Positions 2,148-26,342 of a stretch of 29,199 nucleotides of DNA are shown here, piece by piece. A model generated the notes under the pieces. It saw only the letters and a list, made by a program, of their open reading frames with translations, was not told the DNA's origin and made no database searches. Each line of letters starts with the position of its first letter. Within the stretch, counting starts at the first letter, position 1. This stretch comes from an uncultured Planctomycetaceae bacterium (GTDB taxonomy: Bacteria > Planctomycetota > Phycisphaerae > SM23-33): assembly GCA_964439555.1 (NCBI GenBank), contig CAYTQL010000002.1:1-29199 (forward strand). Reading direction: 5' to 3'. A program made the position numbers and the translations under genes.

Positions 2148-2185
2148 GATGCACCTCCCGGTTGCTTGCCCGTGCAGGGGCAGAG

Positions 2186-2237
2186 ACTCTACGCCCGTCC
2201 CCCCGCGGTTGCAACCCTGCGGACGCCCCGCTAGACT
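2186..2237. promoter_or_regulatory. Divergent sigma70-type promoter pair sharing one palindromic -35 hexamer
   Basis: + strand: TTGCAA(2209-2214)-N17-TAGACT(2232-2237). - strand: TTGCAA(2214-2209)-N17-TAGAGT(2191-2186). Confidence 0.55.
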
Positions 2238-2281
2238 CGCCTGCCCTACTCAATCCCCGAATTCGAGACCACGGAGTTGTA

Positions 2282-3778
2282 ATGGCAGCGAAGCGTCCGC
2301 ATATCGTTATCTTCAACCCGGACCAGTGGCGCGGGGACGTGCTGGGGCATATGGGGAACCCGGGTGCGGTGACGCCGAACCTCGACCGCATGGCCGCCAC
2401 CGACGGCGTGAGCTTCCGCAACGCGTTCTGTCAGAACACCGTCTGCACTCCGAGCCGATGCAGTTTCATGACCGGCTGGTACCCCCACACAAGGGGGCAC
2501 CGCACCATGTACCACATGCTGCGGGAGCATGAGCCTGTCCTGCTGCGGAAGCTGATGGACGCGGGCTACTTCGTCTGGTGGGGCGGCAAGAACGACCTGG
2601 TCCCCGGACAGAACGACCCGCAGGAGTACTGTCACGTCTACAACCGCCCGTCCCGCCCTTTGCGGAAGGACGGACACGAGGTGCACGACTGGCGCGGCGA
2701 CCCCGACGGCGACAACTACTACAGCTTCTACCGCGGCAAACTGGAAAAGGCCGAGGGCGAGGAGATGTATTACGACTGGAACTGGGCCCACGTCCTCGAC
2801 GCCTGCGAGCAGATCCGCAGCGGGGCGGGCGCCGGCGACCGGCCGATGTGCATCGACGTACCCATCGGCTTCCCGCACCCGCCGTATTGCGTGGAGGACC
2901 CCTGGTACAGCATGATCGACCGGGAGAAGGTTCCCGATCGCACGCCCGCCCCGGAGAACTGGGACGCCGCGAAGAAGCCGAGCATCGAGAAGGGCATCCA
3001 CCGCAACCAGCGCCTCGAAGGTTGGGCCGAACAGAGGTGGCGCGAACTGCGGGCGACGTACTACGGCATGTGCGCCCGGACCGATCATCAGTACGGATTG
3101 ATCGTCGAGGCACTCAAAGACGCGGGCATCTACGACGAGACGGCGCTGTTCATGTTCTCCGACCACGGGGACTTCACCGGCGATTACGGGCTGGTCGAGA
3201 AGACCCAGAACACCTTCGAGGACTGCCTCTCCCGCGTGCCCTTCGTCCTCAAGCCGCCGAAGGACTGGCACTGCCGGCCGCGGGTCTCCGACGCGCTGGT
3301 CGAGCTGATCGACTTCACCGCGACGGTCTACGACCTGGCCGGCATCGAACCCGGCTACGACCACTTCGGCCGCTCGCTGCGGGAGGTGCTCGCCGGGGGG
3401 ACCGACGCCCACCGCGACGCGGTCTTCTGCGAGGGCGGACGCCGCCGCGGCGAGGAGCAGTGCATGGAAAAGCAGAGCACCTCCAACCAGAACCCGGAGG
3501 GGCTCTACTACCCGCGGCTGGTGCTCCAGATCCAGGACGAGGGTCCGGAGCACACCAAGGCGACGATGTGCCGCACCCCGACGCACAAGTACACCCGGCG
3601 CCTGTATGAGTCCGACGAGCTTTACGACCTGACCGCCGACCCGATGGAGACGACCAACCTGATCGACGAGCCCGCCTGCGCCGGCGTCCTCGCCGAGTTG
3701 ACCGACCGCATGCTCACCTGGTTCCAGGAGACGGCCGACGTGGTTCCCCGCGACCCGGACGAACGCAACTTCGGTTAG
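2282..3778 (+). CDS. Formylglycine-dependent sulfatase (S1 family), no obvious signal peptide
   Basis: MAAKRPHIVIFNPDQWRGD, catalytic CTPSR motif (CQNTVCTPSRCSFMTG), PHPP, SDHG, ELYDLTADPME. Start ATG 2282 follows a GGAG SD. Confidence 0.93.
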   Translation: MAAKRPHIVIFNPDQWRGDVLGHMGNPGAVTPNLDRMAATDGVSFRNAFCQNTVCTPSRCSFMTGWYPHTRGHRTMYHMLREHEPVLLRKLMDAGYFVWWGGKNDLVPGQNDPQEYCHVYNRPSRPLRKDGHEVHDWRGDPDGDNYYSFYRGKLEKAEGEEMYYDWNWAHVLDACEQIRSGAGAGDRPMCIDVPIGFPHPPYCVEDPWYSMIDREKVPDRTPAPENWDAAKKPSIEKGIHRNQRLEGWAEQRWRELRATYYGMCARTDHQYGLIVEALKDAGIYDETALFMFSDHGDFTGDYGLVEKTQNTFEDCLSRVPFVLKPPKDWHCRPRVSDALVELIDFTATVYDLAGIEPGYDHFGRSLREVLAGGTDAHRDAVFCEGGRRRGEEQCMEKQSTSNQNPEGLYYPRLVLQIQDEGPEHTKATMCRTPTHKYTRRLYESDELYDLTADPMETTNLIDEPACAGVLAELTDRMLTWFQETADVVPRDPDERNFG

Positions 3779-3890
3779 CCCGAGGCGACGGGCGCCCGCC
3801 GCGCCCCGGCCGCAGAGGGGAACGCCACCGGCTTTGCCGTTCGCGGCGTGCGCTGCGGCGAAACGTGGTTTCACTGAAAGGATGCAGTCC

Positions 3891-5093
3891 ATGCCGCATG
3901 GAGACTGGTTCGGCGAAGCCCGCTACGGGATGTTCATTCATTGGGGCCCGTACTCGGTCGCCGGACGGGGCGAGTGGGTGATGAACCGCGAGCGGATTTC
4001 GCCTGCGGACTATCGCCGCTACGCCGAGGCCTTCACCGCCGCCGACTACGACCCCGCGCGCTGGGCGGACCTGGCCGTCGCGGCGGGGATGAAGTACGTG
4101 ATCCTCACCACCCGCCACCACGACGGGTTCGCCTTGTGGGACACGCGGACGACGGACTTCTGCGCTACCAGGTTGGGCCCGAAGCGCGACCTGCTCGTTC
4201 CGTACGTCGAGGCGGTCCGGGCGGCGGGGCTGAAGGTGGGTTTCTACTTTTCCGCAGCCGACTGGTCTCACCCGGACTACCCGGGCCCGCACCGCCGCGA
4301 CTGGCCGAGCGAGTGGGAGGACGACGCCGCCCGCCGACGCTTCATCGCCTACTACCACGCCCAGCTCGAGGAGCTGATTAGCCATTACGGGGACATCGAC
4401 ATCCTCTGGTACGACGGGTGCATCCCCCAGCCGCTCGACGGGGCGCGGATCAACGAACGCGTCAAGGAACTCCAGCCCCGGGTTCTCATCAACGAGCGCA
4501 ACGGCGAGCCCTTCGACTTCCGCTGCCAGGAGCAGTCCACCAAGGCCAAGGAAGGGCGCTGGGAAGCCTGCCTGACGCTCAACGGCAACTGGGGCTACCA
4601 TGCGGGCGATTCCGACTGGAAGTCGCCGCGCGACGTGATCCGCACGCTGATCACCACCGCCGCGGCCGGGGGAAACCTGCTGCTGAACGTCGGTCCGCGG
4701 GCGGACGGGCGAATTCCCGAGGAGTCCGGGCGCATTCTCAGGTCGGCCGGTCAGTGGCTGGCGCGGAACCGCGAGTTCCTCCCGAACTCCGGGCGCAGCC
4801 CCTTCACCTGGAACAACTGCTCGATGCCCACCGTTAAAGACGATCGCCTGTACCTGCACCTCCTCTACTGGCCGGGGACGGAGTACTGCTTTACCGACCT
4901 GGCCAATGAGGTCCGCGACGCCCGGTGGCTCGAAAGCGGAAAGCCGATCGCCTTCGAGCAGGACGGGCCGCGGCTGATCCTCAAGGGCCTGCCCGAGACC
5001 CCGCCGGACGCGATCGCCAGCACGGTCGTCCTCGACCTCGACGGGCCGGCGAAAACCGTAGCCGCCCAGGAGACGTTCTGGATCCCGGAGTAA
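3891..5093 (+). CDS. Alpha-L-fucosidase (GH29), no signal peptide
   Basis: WFGEARYGMFIHWG, AGMKYVILTTRHHDGFALW, nucleophile motif LWYDG, WGY, GGNLLLNVGP. AAAGGA SD before ATG 3891. Confidence 0.92.
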   Translation: MPHGDWFGEARYGMFIHWGPYSVAGRGEWVMNRERISPADYRRYAEAFTAADYDPARWADLAVAAGMKYVILTTRHHDGFALWDTRTTDFCATRLGPKRDLLVPYVEAVRAAGLKVGFYFSAADWSHPDYPGPHRRDWPSEWEDDAARRRFIAYYHAQLEELISHYGDIDILWYDGCIPQPLDGARINERVKELQPRVLINERNGEPFDFRCQEQSTKAKEGRWEACLTLNGNWGYHAGDSDWKSPRDVIRTLITTAAAGGNLLLNVGPRADGRIPEESGRILRSAGQWLARNREFLPNSGRSPFTWNNCSMPTVKDDRLYLHLLYWPGTEYCFTDLANEVRDARWLESGKPIAFEQDGPRLILKGLPETPPDAIASTVVLDLDGPAKTVAAQETFWIPE

Positions 5094-8905: not shown

Positions 8906-8977
8906 AGCCGACCCAGGGATTCGAACCCTGAACCTCAGCTTTACGAAAGCTGTGCTCTGCCGTTGAGCTAGGTCGGC
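8906..8977 (-). tRNA. tRNA-Thr(CGT)
   Basis: GCCGACCTAGCTCAACGGCAGAGCACAGCTTTCGTAAAGCTGAGGTTCAGGGTTCGAATCCCTGGGTCGGCT. Cloverleaf with anticodon loop TTCGTAA and a TTCGAAT T-loop. CCA is not encoded. Confidence 0.96.
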
Positions 8978-11697: not shown

Positions 11698-12723
11698 ATG
11701 TCCGAGAGACTCGCCCGTTCACGCGGTACCGGCTTCACGCTGACCGAGGTGCTTGTCGTCATCTCGATTCTGATTCTGCTGACCGCGGTGTTGATGCCGA
11801 CGCTCAGCGAAGTCCGCGAGGCCGCCTACGACGCGATCTGTCGATCGAATCTGCACAATCTCTCCACCGGTCTGACCACCCAGGGCGCCGACCGGGGCGG
11901 AAAGGTGCCGGGCTCTACGCAGTGGGTATCGAGCGTCTCGGAGCTCGGGCTCACCGACTCGTTGATCTGCCCGAAGGACCAGTTCGACCCACACCAGACC
12001 GCCGCCTCGCTGGACGAGGTGTACGTCCTCCAGTTCCATACCGGCCAGAAGGAGAACTACGACATCTCCTACGTCAACAGCCTGCTCGAAGGTGGCGGTC
12101 CGGTCGTGGACGATCCGCAGATCTGGTGCCGCTACCCCGGCGGGGGAGTCAACGACGACCCGAAGGGCGAGAACTGGCCGCCCGGGAGCATCCCCGACCT
12201 CGACGACAACCAGGCCTTCATCGGCATCGACAACGACGCTTGCTGCCTGATCACCCTCGGCGACCGGGTGGAGATCGAGTCGCTCCCGCCCCCGGACCCC
12301 GGGCACTCCCGCCACTGGGTGATGAAGGGCGACGGGGACATCAAGACCCCCCTCGAAGGCGGGGAGGACCCGGCCAACGAGGACAACGAGAACATCCTCC
12401 ACCTCTACGGGTGGGACTACACGGAGGTGGACCCGCGTTCACCGGCGTCGCCTTCGAGTATCCGGTCGGTCAGCTACGGCATGAACGGCCTGATCGGGGG
12501 GCGGGAGTGGAACCCCTCGCAGATCGTGCTCATCGACGCGCTGGAGGCCAGCATCGAGATCGACGCCGAGGGCAACTTCATCACGCCCCTCCGCGAAGTC
12601 CTGGCGCCGCGGCACTGGGAGGATTCGATGAACATGGTGGACATGAGCGGCGCGGCGCTGCCGATCGATTTTGCCGACTTCGAGCAGCGATTGGAGGAGC
12701 CCGGGTTCCGCTGGTTCCCGTAA
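11698..12723 (+). CDS. Prepilin-type N-terminal cleavage/methylation protein (DUF1559-like pseudopilin)
   Basis: G|FTLTEVLVVISILILLTAVLMPTLSEVRE...CRSNL, SYGMNG, C-terminal RH motif. AAGGAG SD. Confidence 0.9.
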   Translation: MSERLARSRGTGFTLTEVLVVISILILLTAVLMPTLSEVREAAYDAICRSNLHNLSTGLTTQGADRGGKVPGSTQWVSSVSELGLTDSLICPKDQFDPHQTAASLDEVYVLQFHTGQKENYDISYVNSLLEGGGPVVDDPQIWCRYPGGGVNDDPKGENWPPGSIPDLDDNQAFIGIDNDACCLITLGDRVEIESLPPPDPGHSRHWVMKGDGDIKTPLEGGEDPANEDNENILHLYGWDYTEVDPRSPASPSSIRSVSYGMNGLIGGREWNPSQIVLIDALEASIEIDAEGNFITPLREVLAPRHWEDSMNMVDMSGAALPIDFADFEQRLEEPGFRWFP

Positions 12724-12744
12724 CCGGTGCGGAGCCCCCAACGC

Positions 12745-13374
12745 ATGGCATCCGGGAAGATGTTCTCCATCGGGAAGTTGCTGCTCGGCCTGCTCGCCCT
12801 GGTCGCGGTGAGCGCTGCGCTTTACGTGAGCCGCAGCGACCCGCGCGACCTCGCCAACTCCGACGACCCGGGCGACCGGAAACGGGCCGCCCGGGCGCTG
12901 GCCGAGAGCGGCTCGGAGGCGGATCGCGAAAAGCTCGAGCAACTCGTCTCCGACCCCGATCCGTGGGTGGGACGCTACGCCGTCCGCGGCCTGGAGGACC
13001 CGACCAAGCTCCGCCGCATCCTCTCGGACAAGTCGCTGCACGGCGCGGTCCGCGGGGAAGCGGCCGCTCAGCTCGGCAAGAAGGGCGGCGATGCGGAGGC
13101 CCTGACGCGCGTGCTTGACCCCGGCGGCGAGCCCGAGGCGAAGGTCCGCGCCGGGGCCGCCAAGGGCCTCGGCTTCGCACGCGACCCGGAGGCGATCCCC
13201 CAACTCGTCGAGGCGCTGGAGGACCCGGACCGGGAGGTCCGCATCTGGGCGATCACGGCCATCCACCGGATGATCGCGCGACGCTTCCCCTTCGACGCCT
13301 CCAAGCCCCCGGGCACGCAGCGGGCGGAAATCCGCCGCATCGAGGAGTACCTCCGCAAGGCCGGGGCGCTGTAG
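12745..13374 (+). CDS. Membrane-anchored HEAT-repeat protein
   Basis: N-terminal TM helix, then repeats RKRAARAL / VRGEAAAQLG / VRAGAAKGLG / LEDPDREVRIWAITAI. Confidence 0.85.
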   Translation: MASGKMFSIGKLLLGLLALVAVSAALYVSRSDPRDLANSDDPGDRKRAARALAESGSEADREKLEQLVSDPDPWVGRYAVRGLEDPTKLRRILSDKSLHGAVRGEAAAQLGKKGGDAEALTRVLDPGGEPEAKVRAGAAKGLGFARDPEAIPQLVEALEDPDREVRIWAITAIHRMIARRFPFDASKPPGTQRAEIRRIEEYLRKAGAL

Positions 13375-13521
13375 CGGGCGCCGCGGCCGCTGCGCGGCAT
13401 GGTCGTGGTCGCGACGCCCCCGGGGCGCCCCGCTGACGGGGCGTCGGCTCCGCTGTTTGCCCCGCCCGGTCTCTGCGGTACACTCGCCCGCCCAGGATTC
13501 CTCTGCCGAAGGAGCTCAAAC

Positions 13522-14502
13522 GTGGCGAACAAGATCGGTTGGATTGTCTCGGGCGTGCTGGTGCTGGCGCTGGCGGGGTTCGTGGTCTGGCGGGTCGCTT
13601 TCCCGCCGCAGACCGAGCCGACCATCACCGCCGAGCCGGGCATGCTGGAAGTGCAGAAGCCCTCGGCCTCGCCGGCGGCGTTTGCCGGCGGCGACCCGGG
13701 CGGCGCCGGCAACGCCGGGGACGACTACGCCCAGGCCGCTGCGCTGGTCGAAGAGAACATGGCGAAGCTCGCCGAGGCGGACGCGGCCGTCCGCGAGCAG
13801 AAGACCCCCGGCCCCGAGGCGCTGGGATTGCTCAAGCGGGTCCACGGGCTCGTGACGGCGGGGGCCGAGAAGCGCGAGATGGACTACGTCTTCGCCCACA
13901 CGCCCGAGAAGCTCCAGCTTTCGCGCGAGTATCCCCCGGCCTCGGACCTCCAGAACGTCGCCGGCGCGCTGACCACGCTTGCCCTGTACTACTTCTACCA
14001 AGGCGAGTACGACAAGGCCGAGGAGGTCTGGCTGGACCAGTTCCAGCTCGGGCGGCACATGATGCAGGAACGCGACCTCGTGGCGATGACCCAGCGAGGC
14101 TACGGCGTGCAGTCGCTCGCCCTCAACGACCTCCGCGTGCTTTACAAGGAGACGAACCAGCCGGACAAGCGCGCCGCCGTGGACAACTACGCCCAGGCGC
14201 TTCAGGAAGTCAGCGACTGGCACCGGCGGAAGGTCAACGAGGCCGTCTGGCAGGCCGATCCGCTCATCGGCGACCTGATCAACATCGTCGAGAATGACGC
14301 CGACCCCGCCTGGCGGAACGAGGCGCTGCTGTACATGGGCATCGCCCGGCACACCGCCAAGAAGAAGTCCGACCGCGCGAAAATCAAGGAGCTGCTCGAC
14401 CAGTACGCCTCGGGCGCCGAGCCGGTCTCCGCCGCGGCCGCCCGGTGGGCGAAGCAGACCCCGCCGGACATCCTCCACACCTTCGGCTCGCGGCAGTTCT
14501 GA
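13522..14502 (+). CDS. Hypothetical membrane-anchored alpha-helical protein
   Basis: GTG start after an AAGGAG SD. Single N-terminal TM helix (IGWIVSGVLVLALAGFVVW), TPR/HEAT-like helical body. Confidence 0.75.
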   Translation: MANKIGWIVSGVLVLALAGFVVWRVAFPPQTEPTITAEPGMLEVQKPSASPAAFAGGDPGGAGNAGDDYAQAAALVEENMAKLAEADAAVREQKTPGPEALGLLKRVHGLVTAGAEKREMDYVFAHTPEKLQLSREYPPASDLQNVAGALTTLALYYFYQGEYDKAEEVWLDQFQLGRHMMQERDLVAMTQRGYGVQSLALNDLRVLYKETNQPDKRAAVDNYAQALQEVSDWHRRKVNEAVWQADPLIGDLINIVENDADPAWRNEALLYMGIARHTAKKKSDRAKIKELLDQYASGAEPVSAAAARWAKQTPPDILHTFGSRQF

Positions 14503-14600: not shown

Positions 14601-14673
14601 TGGAGCCGCGGGGATTCGAACCCCGGACCTTCTGCATGCCATGCAGACGCGCTCCCAGCTGCGCCACGGCCCC
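14601..14673 (-). tRNA. tRNA-Ala(GGC)
   Basis: GGGGCCGTGGCGCAGCTGGGAGCGCGTCTGCATGGCATGCAGAAGGTCCGGGGTTCGAATCCCCGCGGCTCCA. Anticodon GGC, G3-U70 identity pair, discriminator A. Confidence 0.96.
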
Positions 14674-15100: not shown

Positions 15101-15943
15101 ATGGCGCGAATGCACGGGACGGGAACGGCGAGACGGAACGCATTTACACTGGTGGAGCTGCTGGTGGTCATCGCGATCATCGCGCTGCTGGTCTCTATTC
15201 TCCTGCCGAGCCTCAGCCGCGCGACGGAGCTGGCCAACCGCTCCGCCTGCGGGATGCACCTCAACGGCATCGGCAAGGCGATGAAGACGTACGAAACCGA
15301 GTTCAAACGTTCCCCCGGTCTCCGGACCAGCGGCGGGACCTGGGCGACCGAGTACAACGCCGACGCCAAGAGCTTCGAGGACTTCTCCGAGCTCGGGGAG
15401 AACGCCGAGTGCAACCTCTCGCAGTGGTACGTCCTGGTCAAGGTCGGGACCATCAGCGAGTCGACCTTCGAGTGCCCCTCGGACGACATCTACGAAGAGG
15501 CCGTCCGCAACGATGACAACAAGGTCGGCTTCTCCTCCTGGCGGAACTGCTCCTTCGGGCTCCAGCCCGCCACGCAGCACATCAGCAACCCCGCCTACCC
15601 CGGGGCGACCGGTCAGTCGGCCGGGATGATCATCGCCGGGGACAAGATGAGCCAGGGCGTCCCCGAGAATCAGCCCGAGAAGAAGGTCTCCGACAACCAC
15701 GAGGGCGGGAACTACCTCACCATGACCTGCTCGGTCCAGTGGGTCGAGGGCTCCGCCGAGGGCGCCGACAGTCGCATCGGCATCGAGGAAAACGACGTCT
15801 ACGCCATCGACATGAACGAGGACGGCGAGATCGATACCGGCGTCCCCCCCGGCGACGACGTCGGTCTCCACCATCCCAACGACAGCTACCTGTACTGGAA
15901 AGACCAGGACATGCCGCAGAGCTCGGGTACGAGCGACGGCTGA
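15101..15943 (+). CDS. Prepilin-type N-terminal cleavage/methylation protein (DUF1559-like)
   Basis: A|[27 protein letters not shown]...C, FECPSD, degenerate NHEGGNYL C-terminal motif. AAAGGA SD. Confidence 0.9.
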
Positions 15944-16291
15944 ACGACGATACCGGCCGCGGCGGGCTCTACGCTCCCCGTCGCCCGGTCTCGTGTAAGG
16001 ACGAGGCCCGGACGCGGCCCGGACGGCCGCGATTCAGAACCGGGCAAAACGGCAGCACTGCAACCGGCGCAGGCTCCGCGCGCAGAGATCGGCGGATCGT
16101 CGCGCGACGTTCACGGAAGCTGAGCGCAGTTTTGCGGCGCGGTTCATCGGGACTTAATCGCCGGCGGGCATAATAGCCTCCCGACGGTCGCAGGGGCGAT
16201 TCCCTGCGGGCTTCTTCCGGATGGCCCGCCGACGGAAATGGCACGAAACGGAACCGGCAAGCCTCAACGGCGCGAGATCAAGGACAGGGAG

Positions 16292-17335
16292 ATGATGCGA
16301 GACAAGCGACGCCGCACCCACGGTTTTACCCTCGTCGAGCTGCTGGTGGTCATTGCGATCATCGCACTGCTCGTGAGCATTCTGCTGCCCAGCTTCCAGC
16401 GGGCCCTGGAGATCGCCCGGGCGACCCGCTGCGGGATGAACCTCAATTCCCTGGGCAAGCAGCTCAAGACCTACGCCACCGAGTACGGACGCTACCCGAC
16501 CTCTTACCTGTACCCGAAGGATGAGCACGGCAACTGGGACCTCTCCCAGAACGGCGGGAACAAGCCCCACGGGTACGTCCACTGGTCCTACTTCCTGCTG
16601 GGCAAGGGCAAGCTCGCCGACGACGCCTTCACCTGCGGCTCCGTCCGCAACGGCGGCGCGCCGCGGACCAATCCCGGCGACGACCCGGAGGACTGGGAGT
16701 CCGGGCAGGGCAACCAGAACGGGCAGACCTACCCCGGGGGAACGGGCATCGAGGATCGCCAGGCCCGACGCATGGCGTACACCGCCAACGCCGCGATCAT
16801 CCCGCGGAACAAGTTCAACAAGAGCCTCTCCGGCGGCGTGCGGTACAACCGCTTCGTCGCGCCGTCCGAGGTCAAGCAGGGCGCCAAGACGGTCCTGGTC
16901 ACCGAGTTCTTCGAGGACTGGCGGGCCACCGCCGTCGCCAACCAGGGCGACGCGCTGCTGTGCAAGTCCCACCGCCCGATCAACCCCTTCTGCCACATCT
17001 CACGCGGGACCAACGAGTACAAGGCGGACCTGATGTTCCCGGGACTCCGCTACGGGCCCAACGACCAGACGCCCAGCTACGGGATCCGCACGGAAAAGGC
17101 TGTCCGTCAGAACCCCGTCGGGCTCATCGACTCCGGCGACACCGAGCTGAACGCCGTGGGACGCCATCACTACGGAACCTACGGCGAGGACGGAGAGTTC
17201 GGCGGAAACGTCAACTTCCTCTACTGCGACGGGCACGTCGAACTCAAGAACGTCCTGGAGACCGTGGAACGCCGGGAATGGGGCGAAAAGTACTACAGCC
17301 TCTCCGGACCCAATACGGAAATCATCAACTACTAG
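16292..17335 (+). CDS. Prepilin-type protein with H-X9-DG-like processing-associated motif
   Basis: G|[27 protein letters not shown]...CGMNL, C-terminal RHH...GNVNFLYCDGHV. Start ATG 16292 follows an AAGGA SD. Confidence 0.92.
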   Translation: MMRDKRRRTHGFTLVELLVVIAIIALLVSILLPSFQRALEIARATRCGMNLNSLGKQLKTYATEYGRYPTSYLYPKDEHGNWDLSQNGGNKPHGYVHWSYFLLGKGKLADDAFTCGSVRNGGAPRTNPGDDPEDWESGQGNQNGQTYPGGTGIEDRQARRMAYTANAAIIPRNKFNKSLSGGVRYNRFVAPSEVKQGAKTVLVTEFFEDWRATAVANQGDALLCKSHRPINPFCHISRGTNEYKADLMFPGLRYGPNDQTPSYGIRTEKAVRQNPVGLIDSGDTELNAVGRHHYGTYGEDGEFGGNVNFLYCDGHVELKNVLETVERREWGEKYYSLSGPNTEIINY

Positions 17336-17350
17336 ACCAGATAACCCCCG

Positions 17351-17382
17351 GGCTCGCGGCGACCGGCGCGTCGCGGCGAGCC
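17351..17382. other. GC-rich stem-loop after the third prepilin gene
   Basis: GGCTCGC-G-GCGAC / GTCGC-G-GCGAGCC gives 12 bp with one mismatch. No U-tract. Confidence 0.45.
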
Positions 17383-17533
17383 GCCCAATGGCCGAGGCGG
17401 ACGCAAAGCACAGATCAGCAACCGAAAGGAGGTGGATGCACCTGGCGAAGCGGACTGCAACGGTCAGAAGTACGAAGTGAGGCACGGCGTGAGGGTTTAT
17501 CCAGTTTTTCTATCAGAGCAAAAGGAGCGAAAC

Positions 17534-20179
17534 ATGCACAAGCGCCTGATGAGCATTGCAGGCATTGCGGCCCTGCTGGCGGTCGTTGGCACGGCCGGCG
17601 CCCAGGGCTACGAAGTCAGCGTCAGCGGCGCGACCCTGTTCGAGGCGTTCTTCCAGACGCAGGGCTCGACCAACGATTTCATCGACGCCAACAACAATGG
17701 CGTCTCGGGATTCAACAACGGCAGCCCCGATCAGCTCGCCCCCGACCACACCGTCCAGGGCTCGAACCCGTGGTGGCATGTGTACTACCGCGGCGTCGGC
17801 TCGGGCAACGGGCTCAAGGAAATGGTCCGCTCGAACCTCGAGCGCATCAACGGCACGGTCCCGCACCCGGTCGGCATCTACACCGGCGAGGGCGACCCGG
17901 CCATCCACAATCGCGTGGATGTCACGGACCTCAACGGCAACGGCGTCGCCGGCGACGGCCCGGACATGCTGCTCGACGGGCAGACCCACATCGACATCGG
18001 CGTGATGGACGTGCCGACGAAGTGGTTCAACACCGCCTCGGGCGTTCCGACCGCCGCCAAGGGCCCGGTCTTCGCCGCCAAGCCGACCCAGACCGGCTAC
18101 GGCGACAACCCGATGACCTCCACCCACGGGCAGGCGAATACGCTCAAGAACCTGGAGTGGAACGGCGACTCGCTGAACACCAACACCGACGACCCGGACA
18201 ACAGGACCGTCTTCGACACCGAAATCGCCGCCGTCCCGATCGCCTACATCGTCAACCAGGGCACCGGGCTGGGCACGAACGACTCGAAGGGCTACGGGCA
18301 GAACAACGGGAACGTCAAGGTCACCGAGCTTCAGGCCCTCTTCACCACCGGGCGCATGCCCAACGGTGAGAACCTCGTCGCCTGCACCCGCGACAGCGGC
18401 TCGGGCACCCGCAACGGCGCGATGAACACCATCGGCGTCGATCCCTCCTGGGGTCGCGGGGACAACATGTTCGAGAAGACCAAGCACACCCCGTACACCG
18501 CCGTCGGTCCGGACCACCAGAACACCAACTGGGGCTCCTCGACCCGCATGGAGAAGACCACGAAGAACACCCGCCTGGCCGTCGGCTACACCGGCCTGAT
18601 GGGCAACTCCAAGGCGATCCACGAGCACGAAAAGGGCTGGTACGAGATCGCCAACATCATGAACGACCACCTCGGCGGCGACACCTACGTCCGCCCGACC
18701 CGCGACGCCGTCCTCCAGCGGTCGACTGACGAGGATGAGTGGTACCGCATCATGGGTCTCGAGACGATGGCCACCGTCGGCGATCCGTTCGACGACTCGA
18801 AGGCCGCCATGTCCAACCCGCACGCCGCGGACTACATCCGCAACATCGTCGAGAGCATCGCGAATTTCGAGGCCTTCCAGGGCACCGACGTCAACAACTT
18901 CGGCATGCCCGGCCAGGTCCTCGCGACCGAGTTCGTCCTCCCGGCCGCGCTGCAGGCCAAGCCGAACCAGGCGGACCCGACGGATTTCCAGGCCCTCGCC
19001 CAGAACACCGATCTGCGCGACTGGCTCTTCCGGTGGAACTCGTGGCTGGCCGAGAACCCGGGCACTGACACCTGGAACAGCCCCGACTCGAGCAACGACC
19101 GCCTCAAGGGCTGGGGCGAAGGCGGCTCCGCCCACGGCGTCAAGGGCCCGTGGTACGGGCTCGTCCCGGTTCGTGACGACGGGCACGAGTTCATCGACGT
19201 CGACGGGAACATCCTTACCCAGGACACCCCGATCAAGAAGCGCAACGCGCTGGCCGGCGACTTCAACTACGACGGCATCCGCAACTCGGACGACATCGCC
19301 GAGATGCTCAATGCCGAGGCGCAGGGCGCCGCGTGGGCCGATTCGGCCAACACCAACCCGGGCACGGACGGGTACGCCTGTCTCGAGCTGCTCGGCGACT
19401 TCGACACCGACGGCGACTTCGACGCCGAAGACGTCCGCTACTTCGCCGACGGGCTGGCGATCGACCCGAGCACCGGCATGCTGGACCGCGCCGGCGCCTT
19501 CACGGCGATCGACAACGCGGCCAAGGGCAACTACTTCGGCACTGCCCTGGCGACCGGCAAGACGTACGAAGCCGGCGACGCCCGCGGCGACATCGCCGGC
19601 GACGCGCCGATCGGCGCGAACCCGGACAAGGCCGACGCCCAGGACGCCCACCAGAAGTGGGGCGTCGCGCCGGGCGCCGCGCCCTACGGGGCCGATAACG
19701 TGGTCGACGCCGATGACATCGACTACCTCAACTACGTCCGCAACGGCGGGTACGTCCCGGCCGGGTACGACGGCTTCGTGACCCTCAATGACGGGCTGGA
19801 CTTCGCCGACGACAGCGAGGCCGTCTTCACCGACCTCTCCTGCGACATGAACGGCGACTTCGTCGTGGACAAGACCGACGCGGACATCCTCGTCGGCGAC
19901 ATCCTCGGCACCGGCTACGGTGACGCCGACCTCAACCGCAAGGTCGAGCTGGCCGACTTCACCGCCCTGATCAACGGGTGGGGAAGCGACGCCGGCTGGG
20001 TCGCGGGCGACTTCAACGGTGACGGCGATGTGAACCTCACCGACTTCACCGCCCTGATCAACGGGTGGGGCGACCACAGCAAGTCCGCGCCGAAGATGTC
20101 CCCGGTCCCCGAGCCGGCGACCCTGTCGCTGCTCGGCCTCGGCGGGCTGGCGCTGATCCGTCGCCGTCGTTGCAAGTAG
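17534..20179 (+). CDS. Secreted protein: PstS-like (PBP2) substrate-binding domain, dockerin/EF-hand-like repeats and PEP-CTERM sorting tail
   Basis: Signal peptide MHKRLMSIAGIAALLAVVGTAGA. PstS-like motifs SGATLF, YRGVGSGNG, DIGVMDVP, RDSGSGTR, AVGYTG. DxNxDG-type repeats (GDFNYDG, GDFDTDG, CDMNGD, GDFNGDG). Tail VPEPATLSLLGLGGLALIRRRR. AAAGGAG SD before ATG 17534. Confidence 0.85.
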   Translation: MHKRLMSIAGIAALLAVVGTAGAQGYEVSVSGATLFEAFFQTQGSTNDFIDANNNGVSGFNNGSPDQLAPDHTVQGSNPWWHVYYRGVGSGNGLKEMVRSNLERINGTVPHPVGIYTGEGDPAIHNRVDVTDLNGNGVAGDGPDMLLDGQTHIDIGVMDVPTKWFNTASGVPTAAKGPVFAAKPTQTGYGDNPMTSTHGQANTLKNLEWNGDSLNTNTDDPDNRTVFDTEIAAVPIAYIVNQGTGLGTNDSKGYGQNNGNVKVTELQALFTTGRMPNGENLVACTRDSGSGTRNGAMNTIGVDPSWGRGDNMFEKTKHTPYTAVGPDHQNTNWGSSTRMEKTTKNTRLAVGYTGLMGNSKAIHEHEKGWYEIANIMNDHLGGDTYVRPTRDAVLQRSTDEDEWYRIMGLETMATVGDPFDDSKAAMSNPHAADYIRNIVESIANFEAFQGTDVNNFGMPGQVLATEFVLPAALQAKPNQADPTDFQALAQNTDLRDWLFRWNSWLAENPGTDTWNSPDSSNDRLKGWGEGGSAHGVKGPWYGLVPVRDDGHEFIDVDGNILTQDTPIKKRNALAGDFNYDGIRNSDDIAEMLNAEAQGAAWADSANTNPGTDGYACLELLGDFDTDGDFDAEDVRYFADGLAIDPSTGMLDRAGAFTAIDNAAKGNYFGTALATGKTYEAGDARGDIAGDAPIGANPDKADAQDAHQKWGVAPGAAPYGADNVVDADDIDYLNYVRNGGYVPAGYDGFVTLNDGLDFADDSEAVFTDLSCDMNGDFVVDKTDADILVGDILGTGYGDADLNRKVELADFTALINGWGSDAGWVAGDFNGDGDVNLTDFTALINGWGDHSKSAPKMSPVPEPATLSLLGLGGLALIRRRRCK
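19953..20070 (+). repeat. 31-bp perfect direct repeat inside the dockerin-like region
   Basis: CCGACTTCACCGCCCTGATCAACGGGTGGGG at 19953-19983 and 20040-20070, encoding DFTALINGWG twice. Confidence 0.9.
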
Positions 20180-20232
20180 TTCCGACGTTCGACGCAAAGC
20201 CGCACCCCGGAAGCAAGAGAAAAGGAGTTCGG

Positions 20233-20265
20233 CGGTCCCGCCCGCTGCGTGAGCGGGCGGGACCG
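20233..20265. other. Perfect 14-bp stem-loop between the two PEP-CTERM genes
   Basis: CGGTCCCGCCCGCT-GCGTG-AGCGGGCGGGACCG. No U-tract on either side. Confidence 0.7.
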
Positions 20266-20333
20266 ACCGGGCGGCTCGAGACGGGATTGGAAAGAAGACC
20301 AATCTCGGTACCAATGGAGAAGGGAGAACCCCA

Positions 20334-20828
20334 ATGAAGAAGCTTGCCATCCTCGCAGTGATCGGCCTGATGGCCGCCGGCGCCCAGGCCGGTCTGAACC
20401 TGGAAGTGAATGTCGAGAGCGGCGAAGTCACGATGATCAACGACGCGAACGAAGTCGTCCCGCTGTTTGGCTACTCGATCCTCTCCGAGTCGGGTTCACT
20501 GGACCCGGACGGGTGGGAGCCCACCGACAGCAACATGGACGCGTTCGTGTACTTCGGCAGCGTTCTGGGCGTCGTGAGCGAGACTTCGTACGACCTGACC
20601 GAGTTGGCCGTAAGCCCGATCGATTTCCCCGGGCTCGGGTCCTTCAGCCTCGGCATGGCGTACGACCCGGCCGTCAAGGCCGAGGACCTGGACTTCCAGT
20701 ACACCTTCGGTGAGCTGGGCGACGCCGAGCAGCTCGCCGGCGCCGTGGGTTACGTTCCCGAGCCGATGACGATGAGCGTGCTGGGCCTCGGCGGTCTGGC
20801 GCTGCTGCGTCGTCGTCGTAACCGCTAA
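20334..20828 (+). CDS. Small PEP-CTERM sorting domain protein
   Basis: Signal peptide MKKLAILAVIGLMAAGAQA. C-terminal VPEPMTMSVLGLGGLALLRRRR. Confidence 0.92.
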   Translation: MKKLAILAVIGLMAAGAQAGLNLEVNVESGEVTMINDANEVVPLFGYSILSESGSLDPDGWEPTDSNMDAFVYFGSVLGVVSETSYDLTELAVSPIDFPGLGSFSLGMAYDPAVKAEDLDFQYTFGELGDAEQLAGAVGYVPEPMTMSVLGLGGLALLRRRRNR

Positions 20829-20973
20829 GTTGCAACAGCGCGGCCGCCCGCACGGGGCTGCAATGGCAGTACATTTTGATCAGCCGTCTCGCGCCTGCCG
20901 TAGGTCAGCTTCGTTCTTGGCCTGCGGCAGGCGTCTGAACGGCCTGACTGCATTCCGCACGGAGCAGCCCGCC

Positions 20974-25221: not shown

Positions 25222-26166
25222 CTAGGAGACCAGTTCGGCTTCTTTCCTCGCGGCGTCCGAGCGGCGGAGTGTGGCGTCGCGGAGCTCGAAGAGGGTGATC
25301 TCCGGACGGTGATGCATGTGACTGCGGCGGGAGTGACCGACGCCGCGATTGACGTACAGGCGGCGGTCGCCGGGCAGGACGTACTCGCCGGCGATGAACT
25401 GCCGATGGTTCACCGGAAACAGCAGGTTGTTCAGGACGCTGTCCGGCGTGGGCTTTCCGTGGGTGTGCCCGGCCAGGACGTAATGGGCGCCCAGCGCCGC
25501 GAGGTCGAAGGCGGCGTCGGGGTTGTGCACCAGGGAGATGATCGGCTCGCCGCGGCGTCGCCCGCGGAAGGCGACGGTGGGGCGGTAGCTCGGCGTCCAC
25601 AGGTCGCCGACGCCCACGAAGCGGATGCTGCTTGCGCCGCGCTTGTAGATCACCGGTCGGTTGATGAGCACCTCCACCCCGGCCGCGTCGAGCTGCTCGG
25701 CGACGTATCCGCTCAGCCCGCTGACCGGCGAGTGCATCCGCGGATGCCAGACCCCGTAATCATGGTTCCCGAGCACCGCCAGCGTCGCCATGCGAGGCGA
25801 GAGATCCCGAAGGACGTTCCGTATCGTCCGGGCGTAGGAACGGCTGGTGGCGGTGATGAAATCGCCCGTGAGGACCACGAAATCCGGTTCGAGGCGGTTG
25901 GCCAGTTCGACGTAACGCCGAAGGTGCGCCTCGCGTATCAGCGGGGAGGAGTGCAGGTCGCTGAGGTGCACCAGCGTCGCGCCCTCGAAGTCGCCGAGCG
26001 TGGGCAGGGGCATCTCGTGGCGCTCGACGAGGACCCAGTCGGTCTGGAATTCCCACGTGCACAGCCCGTGCAGCGCCACGCGCGTCGCGGCGTTCCAGAG
26101 GAAGTTCTTCAACGACCACCCGAGTGATTCGAACGCGGACGCCGGTTTGGGCACCAGACCGCTCAT
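25222..26166 (-). CDS. Calcineurin-like metallophosphoesterase (YkuE-like)
   Basis: HLSDLH, LTGDF, LGNHD, HNPD, LAGHTHG, YVNRGVG. AAAGGAG SD. Confidence 0.92.
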   Translation of the reverse strand: MSGLVPKPASAFESLGWSLKNFLWNAATRVALHGLCTWEFQTDWVLVERHEMPLPTLGDFEGATLVHLSDLHSSPLIREAHLRRYVELANRLEPDFVVLTGDFITATSRSYARTIRNVLRDLSPRMATLAVLGNHDYGVWHPRMHSPVSGLSGYVAEQLDAAGVEVLINRPVIYKRGASSIRFVGVGDLWTPSYRPTVAFRGRRRGEPIISLVHNPDAAFDLAALGAHYVLAGHTHGKPTPDSVLNNLLFPVNHRQFIAGEYVLPGDRRLYVNRGVGHSRRSHMHHRPEITLFELRDATLRRSDAARKEAELVS

Positions 26167-26342
26167 CTCCGCTCCTTTCGGGCGACCAGGCTGTTGGTAA
26201 TTATCGGAGACCGGTGCAAAGGACGGGTCTGCAGGGACTTAAGGCTGTGTTAAGTTCCGTGGATAACCTGTGGGTTCTTTGGGGGATCCCGGAGGACTCG
26301 CCGGGCGGCTCTTCTTTCGGCCCCGCGCCGGACCGGAGGGAC

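Follow-up and report, generated by a model that had tools for sequence, protein, structure and literature searches.

What is the function of a large planctomycete protein in which motifs of the phosphate-binding protein PstS are followed by dockerin-like repeats and a PEP-CTERM tail? The question is raised by an open reading frame (ORF) at positions 17534-20179 of a stretch of 29,199 nucleotides (nt), hereafter the window, which corresponds to positions 1 to 29,199 of the forward strand of contig CAYTQL010000002.1 (GenBank assembly GCA_964439555.1) from an uncultured Planctomycetaceae bacterium of the class Phycisphaerae. PstS is the textbook phosphate capture protein, normally free in the periplasm within an ATP-binding cassette (ABC) transporter, and scarcity of phosphate shapes microbial life in the sea and in sediments. 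An initial annotation, made from the sequence of the window, had proposed a surface-anchored protein for the capture or sensing of phosphate, or for mineral nucleation. We find a PstS-type fold and binding site to be well supported for the N-terminal domain and, with distinctly more reserve, we favour the view that the protein is a phosphate-starvation-regulated, envelope-tethered phosphate trap which, with a pseudopilin-like partner, forms a two-gene module in part of the Phycisphaerae.

The gene and its protein

The ORF encodes a protein of 881 amino acids (aa) on the + strand, with an ATG start at 17534 preceded by a ribosome-binding site, AAAGGAG, that was graded good. Its third-position GC content is 0.92 in a window of 68% G+C, which identifies 17534-20179 as the real reading frame. 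The parts of the protein are given below together with the six motifs named in the initial annotation, all of which, like the PEP-CTERM tail, proved to lie where it had placed them.

17534..17605, + strand: Sec signal peptide (residues 1-24), as read from the sequence, with a basic N-terminus, a hydrophobic core and the site AGAQ/G (TAGAQ/G), and without a lipobox Cys
17606..19048, + strand: putative PstS-like phosphate-binding domain (residues 25-505), comprising a core fold of ~250 residues and family-specific insertions of ~230 residues
17624-17641, + strand: SGATLF, motif of the PstS-like domain
from 17783, + strand: YYRGVGSGNGLKEM, motif of the PstS-like domain
from 17990, + strand: IDIGVMDVP, motif of the PstS-like domain
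18221-18256, + strand: EIAAVPIAYIVN, motif of the PstS-like domain
from 18386, + strand: TRDSGSGTRN, motif of the PstS-like domain
from 18578, + strand: AVGYTG, motif of the PstS-like domain
19157..20068, + strand: conserved C-terminal module (residues ~542-845) of dockerin/EF-hand-like Ca-loop repeats
20102..20170, + strand: PEP-CTERM sorting signal (PVPEP, hydrophobic stretch, RRRR), with PF07589 at 26.2 bits and TIGR02595 at 24.9 bits, both above cut-off

Pfam recognised only Dockerin_1 (residues 795-843, 31.4 bits; cut-off 22.9 bits) and PEP-CTERM (residues 857-879, 26.2 bits; cut-off 20.7 bits) in the 881-aa protein, and NCBIfam only PEP-CTERM models. The expectation that a pipeline would name it after these parts was justified, since its relatives are named 'dockerin type I domain-containing', 'PEP-CTERM sorting domain-containing' or 'hypothetical'.

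Fold of the N-terminal domain

A word-indexed search yielded 390 relatives, all of them long (nearly all ~750-1060 residues) and from Phycisphaerae-type planctomycetes, and none carrying the PstS Pfam domain. When 42 of the N-terminal domains were aligned (alignment A1), the six motifs coincided with the most conserved columns and they are, therefore, not due to chance. The profile of A1, compared with all sequences of the Protein Data Bank (PDB), found five chains, all of phosphate-binding proteins (best 1twy, E 2.1e-4), and its blocks GvGSgnGL and RdsGSGTRN landed on the matching PstS blocks of these chains.

The AlphaFold2 model of the N-terminal domain, built with A1 (pLDDT 85.4, pTM 0.89), shows the two-lobed class II binding-protein fold of PstS type. 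Foldseek returned 42 matches to the PDB at E <=1e-3, and the first 47 rows were all PstS or DING proteins; against the Swiss-Prot models all 30 rows were PstS, SphX or the PstS-like LapA (P35482). The class II periplasmic-binding fold claimed in the initial annotation thus survived the AlphaFold and Foldseek check that had been proposed for it, and a different fold was not seen. In the model, ~250 residues make up a complete PstS core and a further ~230 residues are insertions.

The Pfam search for PBP_like_2 or PstS that had also been suggested gave a different result, with no match to the 881-aa protein even at E = 1. The curated models PBP_like_2, TIGR00975 and TIGR02136 all remained unmatched at that level, while the canonical PstS of the same genome scores 149 bits, and we therefore regard the protein as a divergent relative that lies outside the curated families. 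An exhaustive search of 1.84 billion cluster representatives with the family profile found only 519 proteins at E <=1e-3, so that the family is discrete and its profile stops short of ordinary PstS.

The putative phosphate site

HMMER aligns yRGvGSgnGL of the family with YQGIGSSGGV of Escherichia coli PstS, and RdsGSGT with RADGSGT. Counted on the E. coli sequence, the putative ligand residues are as follows.

T34: equivalent of E. coli PstS T10
S90: equivalent of E. coli PstS S38
D159: equivalent of E. coli PstS D56
R286: equivalent of E. coli PstS R135
S290: equivalent of E. coli PstS S139
G291: equivalent of E. coli PstS G140
T292: equivalent of E. coli PstS T141

Six of them (S90, D159, R286, S290, G291 and T292) are identical in 120 of 120 homologues, and T34 is T or S in all 120. 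The position of E. coli D137, which the initial annotation had singled out as the only difference, does differ, being S, A or V among the homologues. In the model, and in the numbering of the domain, T10 follows strand 2-8, S66 starts helix 66-81, D135 follows strand 131-134 and S266-T268 start helix 267-275. Ligand residues placed after strands or at the N-termini of helices are the known arrangement in PstS. By sequence the set of ligand residues is complete and, judged from homology, residue lists and secondary structure, it would converge on one cleft.

An Asp at the position of E. coli D56 is known to select protonated phosphate over fully ionised sulfate, and the invariant D159 thus favours an oxyanion that is protonated (phosphate or arsenate) over sulfate. 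This bears on the alternative that the PstS fold has been kept for another ligand, such as the terminal phosphate of a polymer or ester, pyro- or polyphosphate, arsenate or a sulfated glycan, and that the domain serves as a targeting unit, akin to a carbohydrate-binding module, on a dockerin scaffold. The large insertions and the invariant basic residues R86 and R293, which are absent from E. coli PstS, would fit such a role, as would the sulfatase and fucosidase genes in the window and the usual company of dockerin modules, which is that of polymer-degrading proteins. Apart from the discriminating Asp, however, the genomic and promoter links described below lead to pstSCAB, phoU and phoBR and not to glycan loci, and sulfate- or sugar-binding proteins never outrank PstS among the structural matches. 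We consider another ligand improbable.

The upstream partner gene

Two features of the locus, neither of which was noticed in the initial annotation, are the most informative: an upstream partner gene and a repeated association with the Pho regulon.

16238..17335, + strand: partner gene of a ~340-aa family, with a prepilin-type N-terminal motif, a DUF1559-like globular domain (about residues 54-365) and the C-terminal motif NFLYCDGHV

Translation of this gene may in fact begin at the internal Met pair 16292/16295. Its product matches N_methyl (PF07963, 33.9 bits) and TIGR02532 (27.7 bits), and SBP_bac_10/DUF1559 at 22.6 bits, slightly below the cut-off of 23.3. The G/FTLxE cleavage-methylation motif is followed by a hydrophobic helix, as in prepilins, and the motif is present in 47 of 47 orthologues. 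In each of the 47 loci of the final set, the gene directly upstream of the PstS-like gene is a co-oriented orthologue of the partner; such a gene had been found in all 33 loci of the initial set after their flanks were extended. The same order occurs in the cultured Poriferisphaera corsica KS4 (PstS-like gene KS4_32210) and in other long contigs. The upstream proteins are orthologous, with 38-50% identity (alignment A2), and their shared motifs include GYxHWS, PRTNPG, PRNKF, SKSHRP, GRHHPGG, NFLYxDGHV and EWGxxYYSLTG. The partner profile had no match in the PDB, and a search of the ESM Atlas with the partner gave N_methyl/DUF1559 clusters only.

The two genes are also distributed together. The PstS-like family, present as one copy in this genome, occurs in 59 of 251 Phycisphaerae genomes (about a quarter), mostly as a single copy, and was unmatched in 284 Planctomycetota genomes outside the class. 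Its presence is patchy by taxonomic family: 11 of 12, 9 of 12 and 7 of 10 genomes carry it in three of them, yet only 2 of 35 do so in the family of this genome. All 59 genomes with the PstS-like family, including those with a divergent subfamily, yield a full-length partner match at E <=1e-46, and the two genes are adjacent wherever the coordinates of both are listed. Among the 192 genomes that lack the PstS-like family, a partner match at <=1e-60 was found in two and one between 1e-39 and 1e-31 in four; the remaining listed genomes give matches of 1e-10 or weaker, the listed ones covering mainly profile positions 1 to 40-100. Two genomes (G306 and G378) from the GTDB family of the divergent subfamily have partner matches at E 1e-69 and 1e-72 and give none to the PstS-like family at E <=1e-10; either their PstS-like gene has diverged too far or is missing from the assembly, or the partner is able to exist alone.

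The gap between the two genes (17336-17533) has counterparts of ~100-210 nt in all seven loci for which genes were called, and the genes are therefore not translationally coupled. Neither a terminator nor a known RNA family was detected in the gap.

A physical complex of the two proteins is plausible, on the strength of the structure predictor's own confidence. Modelled together, their globular parts gave an ipSAE of 0.75, against 0.00 for the best control; the runs share at least 93% of their contacts and the partner has a pLDDT of at least 88. Among 80 solved complexes, 58 attained this ipSAE mark, as did 2 of 110 mismatched pairs; the counts hold only roughly here because our own alignments were used. 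On the PstS-like side, the predicted interface comprises domain residues 17-55, a family-specific insertion with a near-invariant DQLA (about residues 66-69 of the protein), and helices around 429-442. None of the ligand-equivalent residues is among the listed confident interface residues.

Signs of phosphate control

The window contains none of pstC, pstA, pstB and phoU, in agreement with the initial annotation, and a canonical pstS-pstC-pstA-pstB-phoU operon with a porin was located on another contig of the same genome. Since this operon has its own pstS, the PstS-like protein is not the binding protein of that transporter, a point on which the initial annotation was right. The statement that no pst genes lie nearby is correct for this window and fails for the family as a whole, in which the pair adjoins the pstSCAB genes of its genome in 4 of 47 loci from different families (L052, L058, L092 and L057). 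In each of these a separate canonical pstS is present, and three of the four carry phoU and three a phoBR-like pair. The most complete arrangement is the following.

L052, all on one strand: PhoB-like regulator, PhoR/PnpS-like kinase, metallophosphoesterase, three genes of which the last is the partner, PstS-like gene, pstS, pstC, pstA, two pstB genes and phoU

The best NCBIfam match of the regulator in L052 is PhoB (251 bits, below the equivalog cut-off), and the canonical pstS there matches TIGR02136 at 258 bits. L058 and L092 share this design, with an OprB-family porin between the pair and pstS in L092, while in L057, from the GTDB family of this genome, pstSCAB is divergent from the partner gene. 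A phoBR-like regulator pair also precedes the pair in L082.

A second line of evidence is provided by the promoters. A motif-free search for direct repeats upstream of the partner gene counted 109 at a spacing of 11 nt, against 35-55 at other spacings, and these repeats are CTTAAC/CTTAGC-like. Strict TTA[AG][CT] pairs with a spacing of exactly 11 nt were found in 7 of 47 promoters, with 0-1 at the other spacings from 6 to 17, and with a relaxed second half-site the figures become 20 of 47 and 0-3, respectively. Upstream of the partner the density of strict pairs is 117 times that of the other 1.84 Mb of the loci. Those found elsewhere lie before pstS, beside a phoB-like gene and, in two loci, just after the PstS-like gene, and the others are opposite-strand readings at or near sites already counted upstream of the pair. 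Two strict pairs are present in the pstS promoter of this genome. In the window the corresponding elements are as follows.

16142..16160, + strand: GTTCATCG-GGA-CTTAATCG, a Pho-box-like repeat by the relaxed definition only, with tandem units of 8 bp on either side of a 3-bp linker
16169-16174, + strand: -10-like CATAAT, 8 nt past the Pho-box-like repeat

The former is the sole relaxed TTAAC-type pair with 11-nt spacing on the + strand of the window. In published Pho boxes, tandem repeats of 8 bp are separated by a linker of 3 bp; the consensus in Synechocystis is CTTAACCT, and the E. coli box is placed ~10 bp ahead of the -10 element (PMC1906773). The repeats of the window and of the family share this architecture, and the motif of the family matches the cyanobacterial CTTAACCT. 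A scan of 15900-20900 for promoters and terminators gave nothing above shuffled expectation. Taken with the adjacency to pstSCAB-phoU and phoBR, the repeats make it probable that the pair belongs to the phosphate-starvation response.

The same neighbourhoods bear on the alternative that the protein is an extracytoplasmic sensor which reports envelope phosphate to the Pho two-component system through its membrane-anchored partner. In four loci the pair is immediately preceded by PhoB/PhoR-like genes, and the partner has a membrane helix; both points speak for such a sensor. Nevertheless, at most loci no regulator is nearby, neither protein has a signalling domain, and the canonical PstSCAB-PhoU, which usually performs this task, is present, so that a sensor appears very improbable.

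Elsewhere in the window, a near-perfect Pho-box-like repeat, CTTAACAC-AGC-CTTAAGTC (26236-26258, - strand), precedes by ~70-90 nt a gene for a calcineurin-like phosphoesterase (Metallophos, 25222-26166, - strand), which makes that gene a possible further member of the Pho regulon. We rejected this gene as an orthologue of the metallophosphoesterase gene beside phoBR in L052, given that they share a local match only (E 2e-4).

The C-terminal module and the sorting signal

Residues ~542-845 are retained in 119 of 120 homologues. The AlphaFold2 model of this module (pLDDT 78) folds as helix-loop repeats, and the several Ca-binding repeats reported in the initial annotation are represented by three DxDxDG-type loops, at residues 576, 622 and 826. 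Residues 795-843 have the duplicated Ca-binding loop-helix of a type I dockerin (PF00404). Foldseek gave no match to the PDB at E <=1e-3 for the module; there were weak local matches, all but the last of them to cohesin-dockerin entries (best E 0.38).

A PEP-CTERM ending is found in ~30% of the 120 homologues, and the others end in a further dockerin-like repeat. Anchoring through this signal, as initially envisaged, is therefore consistent with the present copy, for which the genome provides an exosortase, and does not extend to the ~70% of homologues without it; the signal is an accessory to the conserved core rather than its defining anchor. Exosortase_EpsH is represented by two fragments, scoring 113 and 60 bits, each at the end of a contig (C185:5814-6344 and C85:9864-10097), one carrying the N-terminal two thirds and the other the C-terminal third, and these are probably one gene broken by the assembly.

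Other features of the window

The genes flanking the pair, and the RNA genes, are summarised below.

2162-5093, + strand: adjacent sulfatase and alpha-L-fucosidase genes
8906-8977, - strand: tRNA (RF00005, 67.5 bits)
11698-12723, + strand: prepilin-type gene (N_methyl/TIGR02532)
12727-13374: HEAT-repeat protein
13399-14502: 367-aa protein without a family match
14601-14673, - strand: tRNA (RF00005, 63.2 bits)
15101-15943, + strand: prepilin-type gene (N_methyl/TIGR02532)
20334..20828, + strand: small PEP-CTERM protein of 164 aa directly downstream of the PstS-like gene (TIGR02595, 21.3 bits)

The two tRNAs were the only Rfam matches in the window. The sulfatase and fucosidase genes are typical of the polysaccharide-degradation content of the class and unrelated to the finding. 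The wider upstream set of prepilin-type genes, HEAT protein and 367-aa protein is not conserved beside the pair in the relatives inspected.

The small PEP-CTERM protein may be associated with the pair, and a 194-aa PEP-CTERM gene occupies the same position in P. corsica. We rejected it as a general feature because the window and P. corsica alone show it and five other inspected loci lack it. In P. corsica the pair is followed by a second cassette (L001, 11367-14262), in which a prepilin-type gene (323 aa) precedes a gene for a 623-aa dockerin/PEP-CTERM protein; a pseudopilin-like gene with a secreted dockerin protein may be a general cassette type in the Phycisphaerae.

A possible mechanism and its relation to known systems

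The mechanism that we propose begins with a PhoB-type regulator, which would induce the module through a Pho box of CTTAAC type; both the motif and its enrichment are observed, and the regulation is what we infer from them. The 881-aa protein, judged by its signal peptide, would be exported by Sec, and its N-terminal domain would bind orthophosphate in a PstS-type cleft through T34, S90, D159, R286, S290, G291 and T292. According to the complex model, the insertion (TND.ID.DGDG...DQLA) and the late helices could dock the globular domain of the partner, whose N-terminal helix may fix the complex to the membrane or make it part of a pseudopilus or pilus-like fibre. The Ca-loop/dockerin module, and here also the PEP-CTERM/exosortase signal, would fasten the protein to the envelope or display it there, and we infer that it is displayed on the surface or on a fibre. 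Such a trap could concentrate phosphate outside the inner membrane and feed the separate route of porin and PstSCAB. The initial suggestions of mineral nucleation or sensing gained nothing in their favour.

Several observations weigh against the trap that we favour. Pfam (E up to 1), NCBIfam and a single-sequence phmmer search of the PDB revealed no relation to PstS, and the hhalign comparison of the family profile with the canonical PstS of the same genome was insignificant (E 0.1, probability 0.6%), despite pairing the correct motifs. At the site itself, the position of E. coli D137 is not conserved in the family, the additional invariant residues R86, R293 and N294 could shift the specificity, and the ~230 residues of insertions could alter access to the cleft. 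A pst operon adjoins the pair in no more than 4 of 47 loci, the Pho-box-like site of the window satisfies the relaxed definition only, and the half-site was defined after inspection of the data, which leaves the spacing and background controls as the only independent ones. Finally, no cohesin (PF00963), the usual counterpart of a dockerin, was found in this 86%-complete genome.

Among PstS proteins, the structurally closest are short PBP_like_2-type forms, including PstS1 of Streptococcus pneumoniae (4lat, 4exl) and 4ecf of Lactobacillus brevis. The protein differs from these in its ~230 extra insertion residues and in scoring below all Pfam and NCBIfam PstS models, in its fusion to the dockerin-like module of ~300 aa, with or without PEP-CTERM, and in the unconserved D137 position. 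Moreover, it is never the sole PstS, the canonical one also being present, and it is always paired with the pseudopilin-like gene. From the DING proteins, which are ~40-kDa single domains with a DINGGGATL N-terminus, and from LapA, it is distinguished by a domain closer to true PstS that lacks the DINGGG N-terminus and by its dockerin and PEP-CTERM parts, which those proteins do not have.

The nearest functional parallel is found in Pseudomonas aeruginosa, where PstS and DING-type proteins occur on surface appendages under low phosphate, and where the phosphate-regulated Hxc type II secretion system, equipped with pseudopilins of its own, exports the PstS-like PA0688, with which it is clustered (PMC2242829). 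A PstS-family protein beyond the periplasm, phosphate control and a linkage to pseudopilins are common to both, the first two being predicted in the Phycisphaerae. There, however, a single DUF1559-type pilin-like partner takes the place of the full Hxc cluster, the family is restricted to the Phycisphaerae, unlike the Hxc and DING systems, and a direct PstS-pseudopilin complex is predicted, none being described for Hxc in PMC2242829.

This parallel also suggests a different explanation, in which a type II secretion or pseudopilus system exports the PstS-like protein, which then acts, released or at the surface, mainly as an adhesin or as a scavenger of phosphatase-like kind, and the upstream protein is a dedicated secretion or recognition partner rather than a lasting one. 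The low-phosphate induction of Hxc and the surface location of the P. aeruginosa proteins favour it, as do LapA among the structural matches, the PilM or T2SS-E genes near the pair in some relatives and the contact with a pseudopilin-like protein in the complex model. We rate it as doubtful, about on a par with the binding of another ligand. Slightly less doubtful, and still unlikely, is an extended form of the phosphate trap in which the partner builds or caps a pseudopilus or pilus-like fibre that bears the PstS-like payload, a phosphate 'fishing' device handing over to the porin and PstSCAB; a 'fishing rod' uptake idea has been proposed for Planctomycetota (mentioned in PMC12078418).

The partner resembles the DUF1559 (SBP_bac_10)/H-X9-DG prepilin-type proteins of Planctomycetota in its prepilin motif, its weak DUF1559 match and its DGHV-type C-terminal motif. 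It constitutes a distinct orthologous subfamily, at the 38-50% identity across the Phycisphaerae given above, which is one-to-one with the PstS-like gene and which generic paralogues match through the N-terminal helix only. The C-terminal module, in turn, is similar to the type I dockerins of cellulosomal proteins, with Dockerin_1 above cut-off and paired Ca-loop/helix repeats, and differs from them in carrying several repeats within a larger conserved module on a binding protein, not an enzyme, in a genome where no cohesin was found. As in other PEP-CTERM/exosortase substrates, there is a PEP motif, a hydrophobic stretch and an Arg cluster; here the signal is optional.

Significance

In the literature searched, DUF1559 proteins are mentioned without an assigned function, and we found no relevant paper linking PstS with dockerin or the Phycisphaerae with PEP-CTERM, nothing specific on phosphate limitation in planctomycetes and no description of the PstS-like family. 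The locus presents a deeply diverged PstS domain, undetected by current annotation, that is built into a large multi-module envelope protein. If our reading is correct, the module would represent a new architecture for bacterial phosphate acquisition, and it would provide a testable function for one DUF1559 pseudopilin-like subfamily, a candidate Pho-box motif for the Phycisphaerae and a phosphate-stress marker gene for planctomycete metatranscriptomes. Should the partner also form a fibre, this would be the first function assigned within the huge DUF1559 expansion of the Planctomycetota and a concrete case of the 'fishing rod' idea of uptake.

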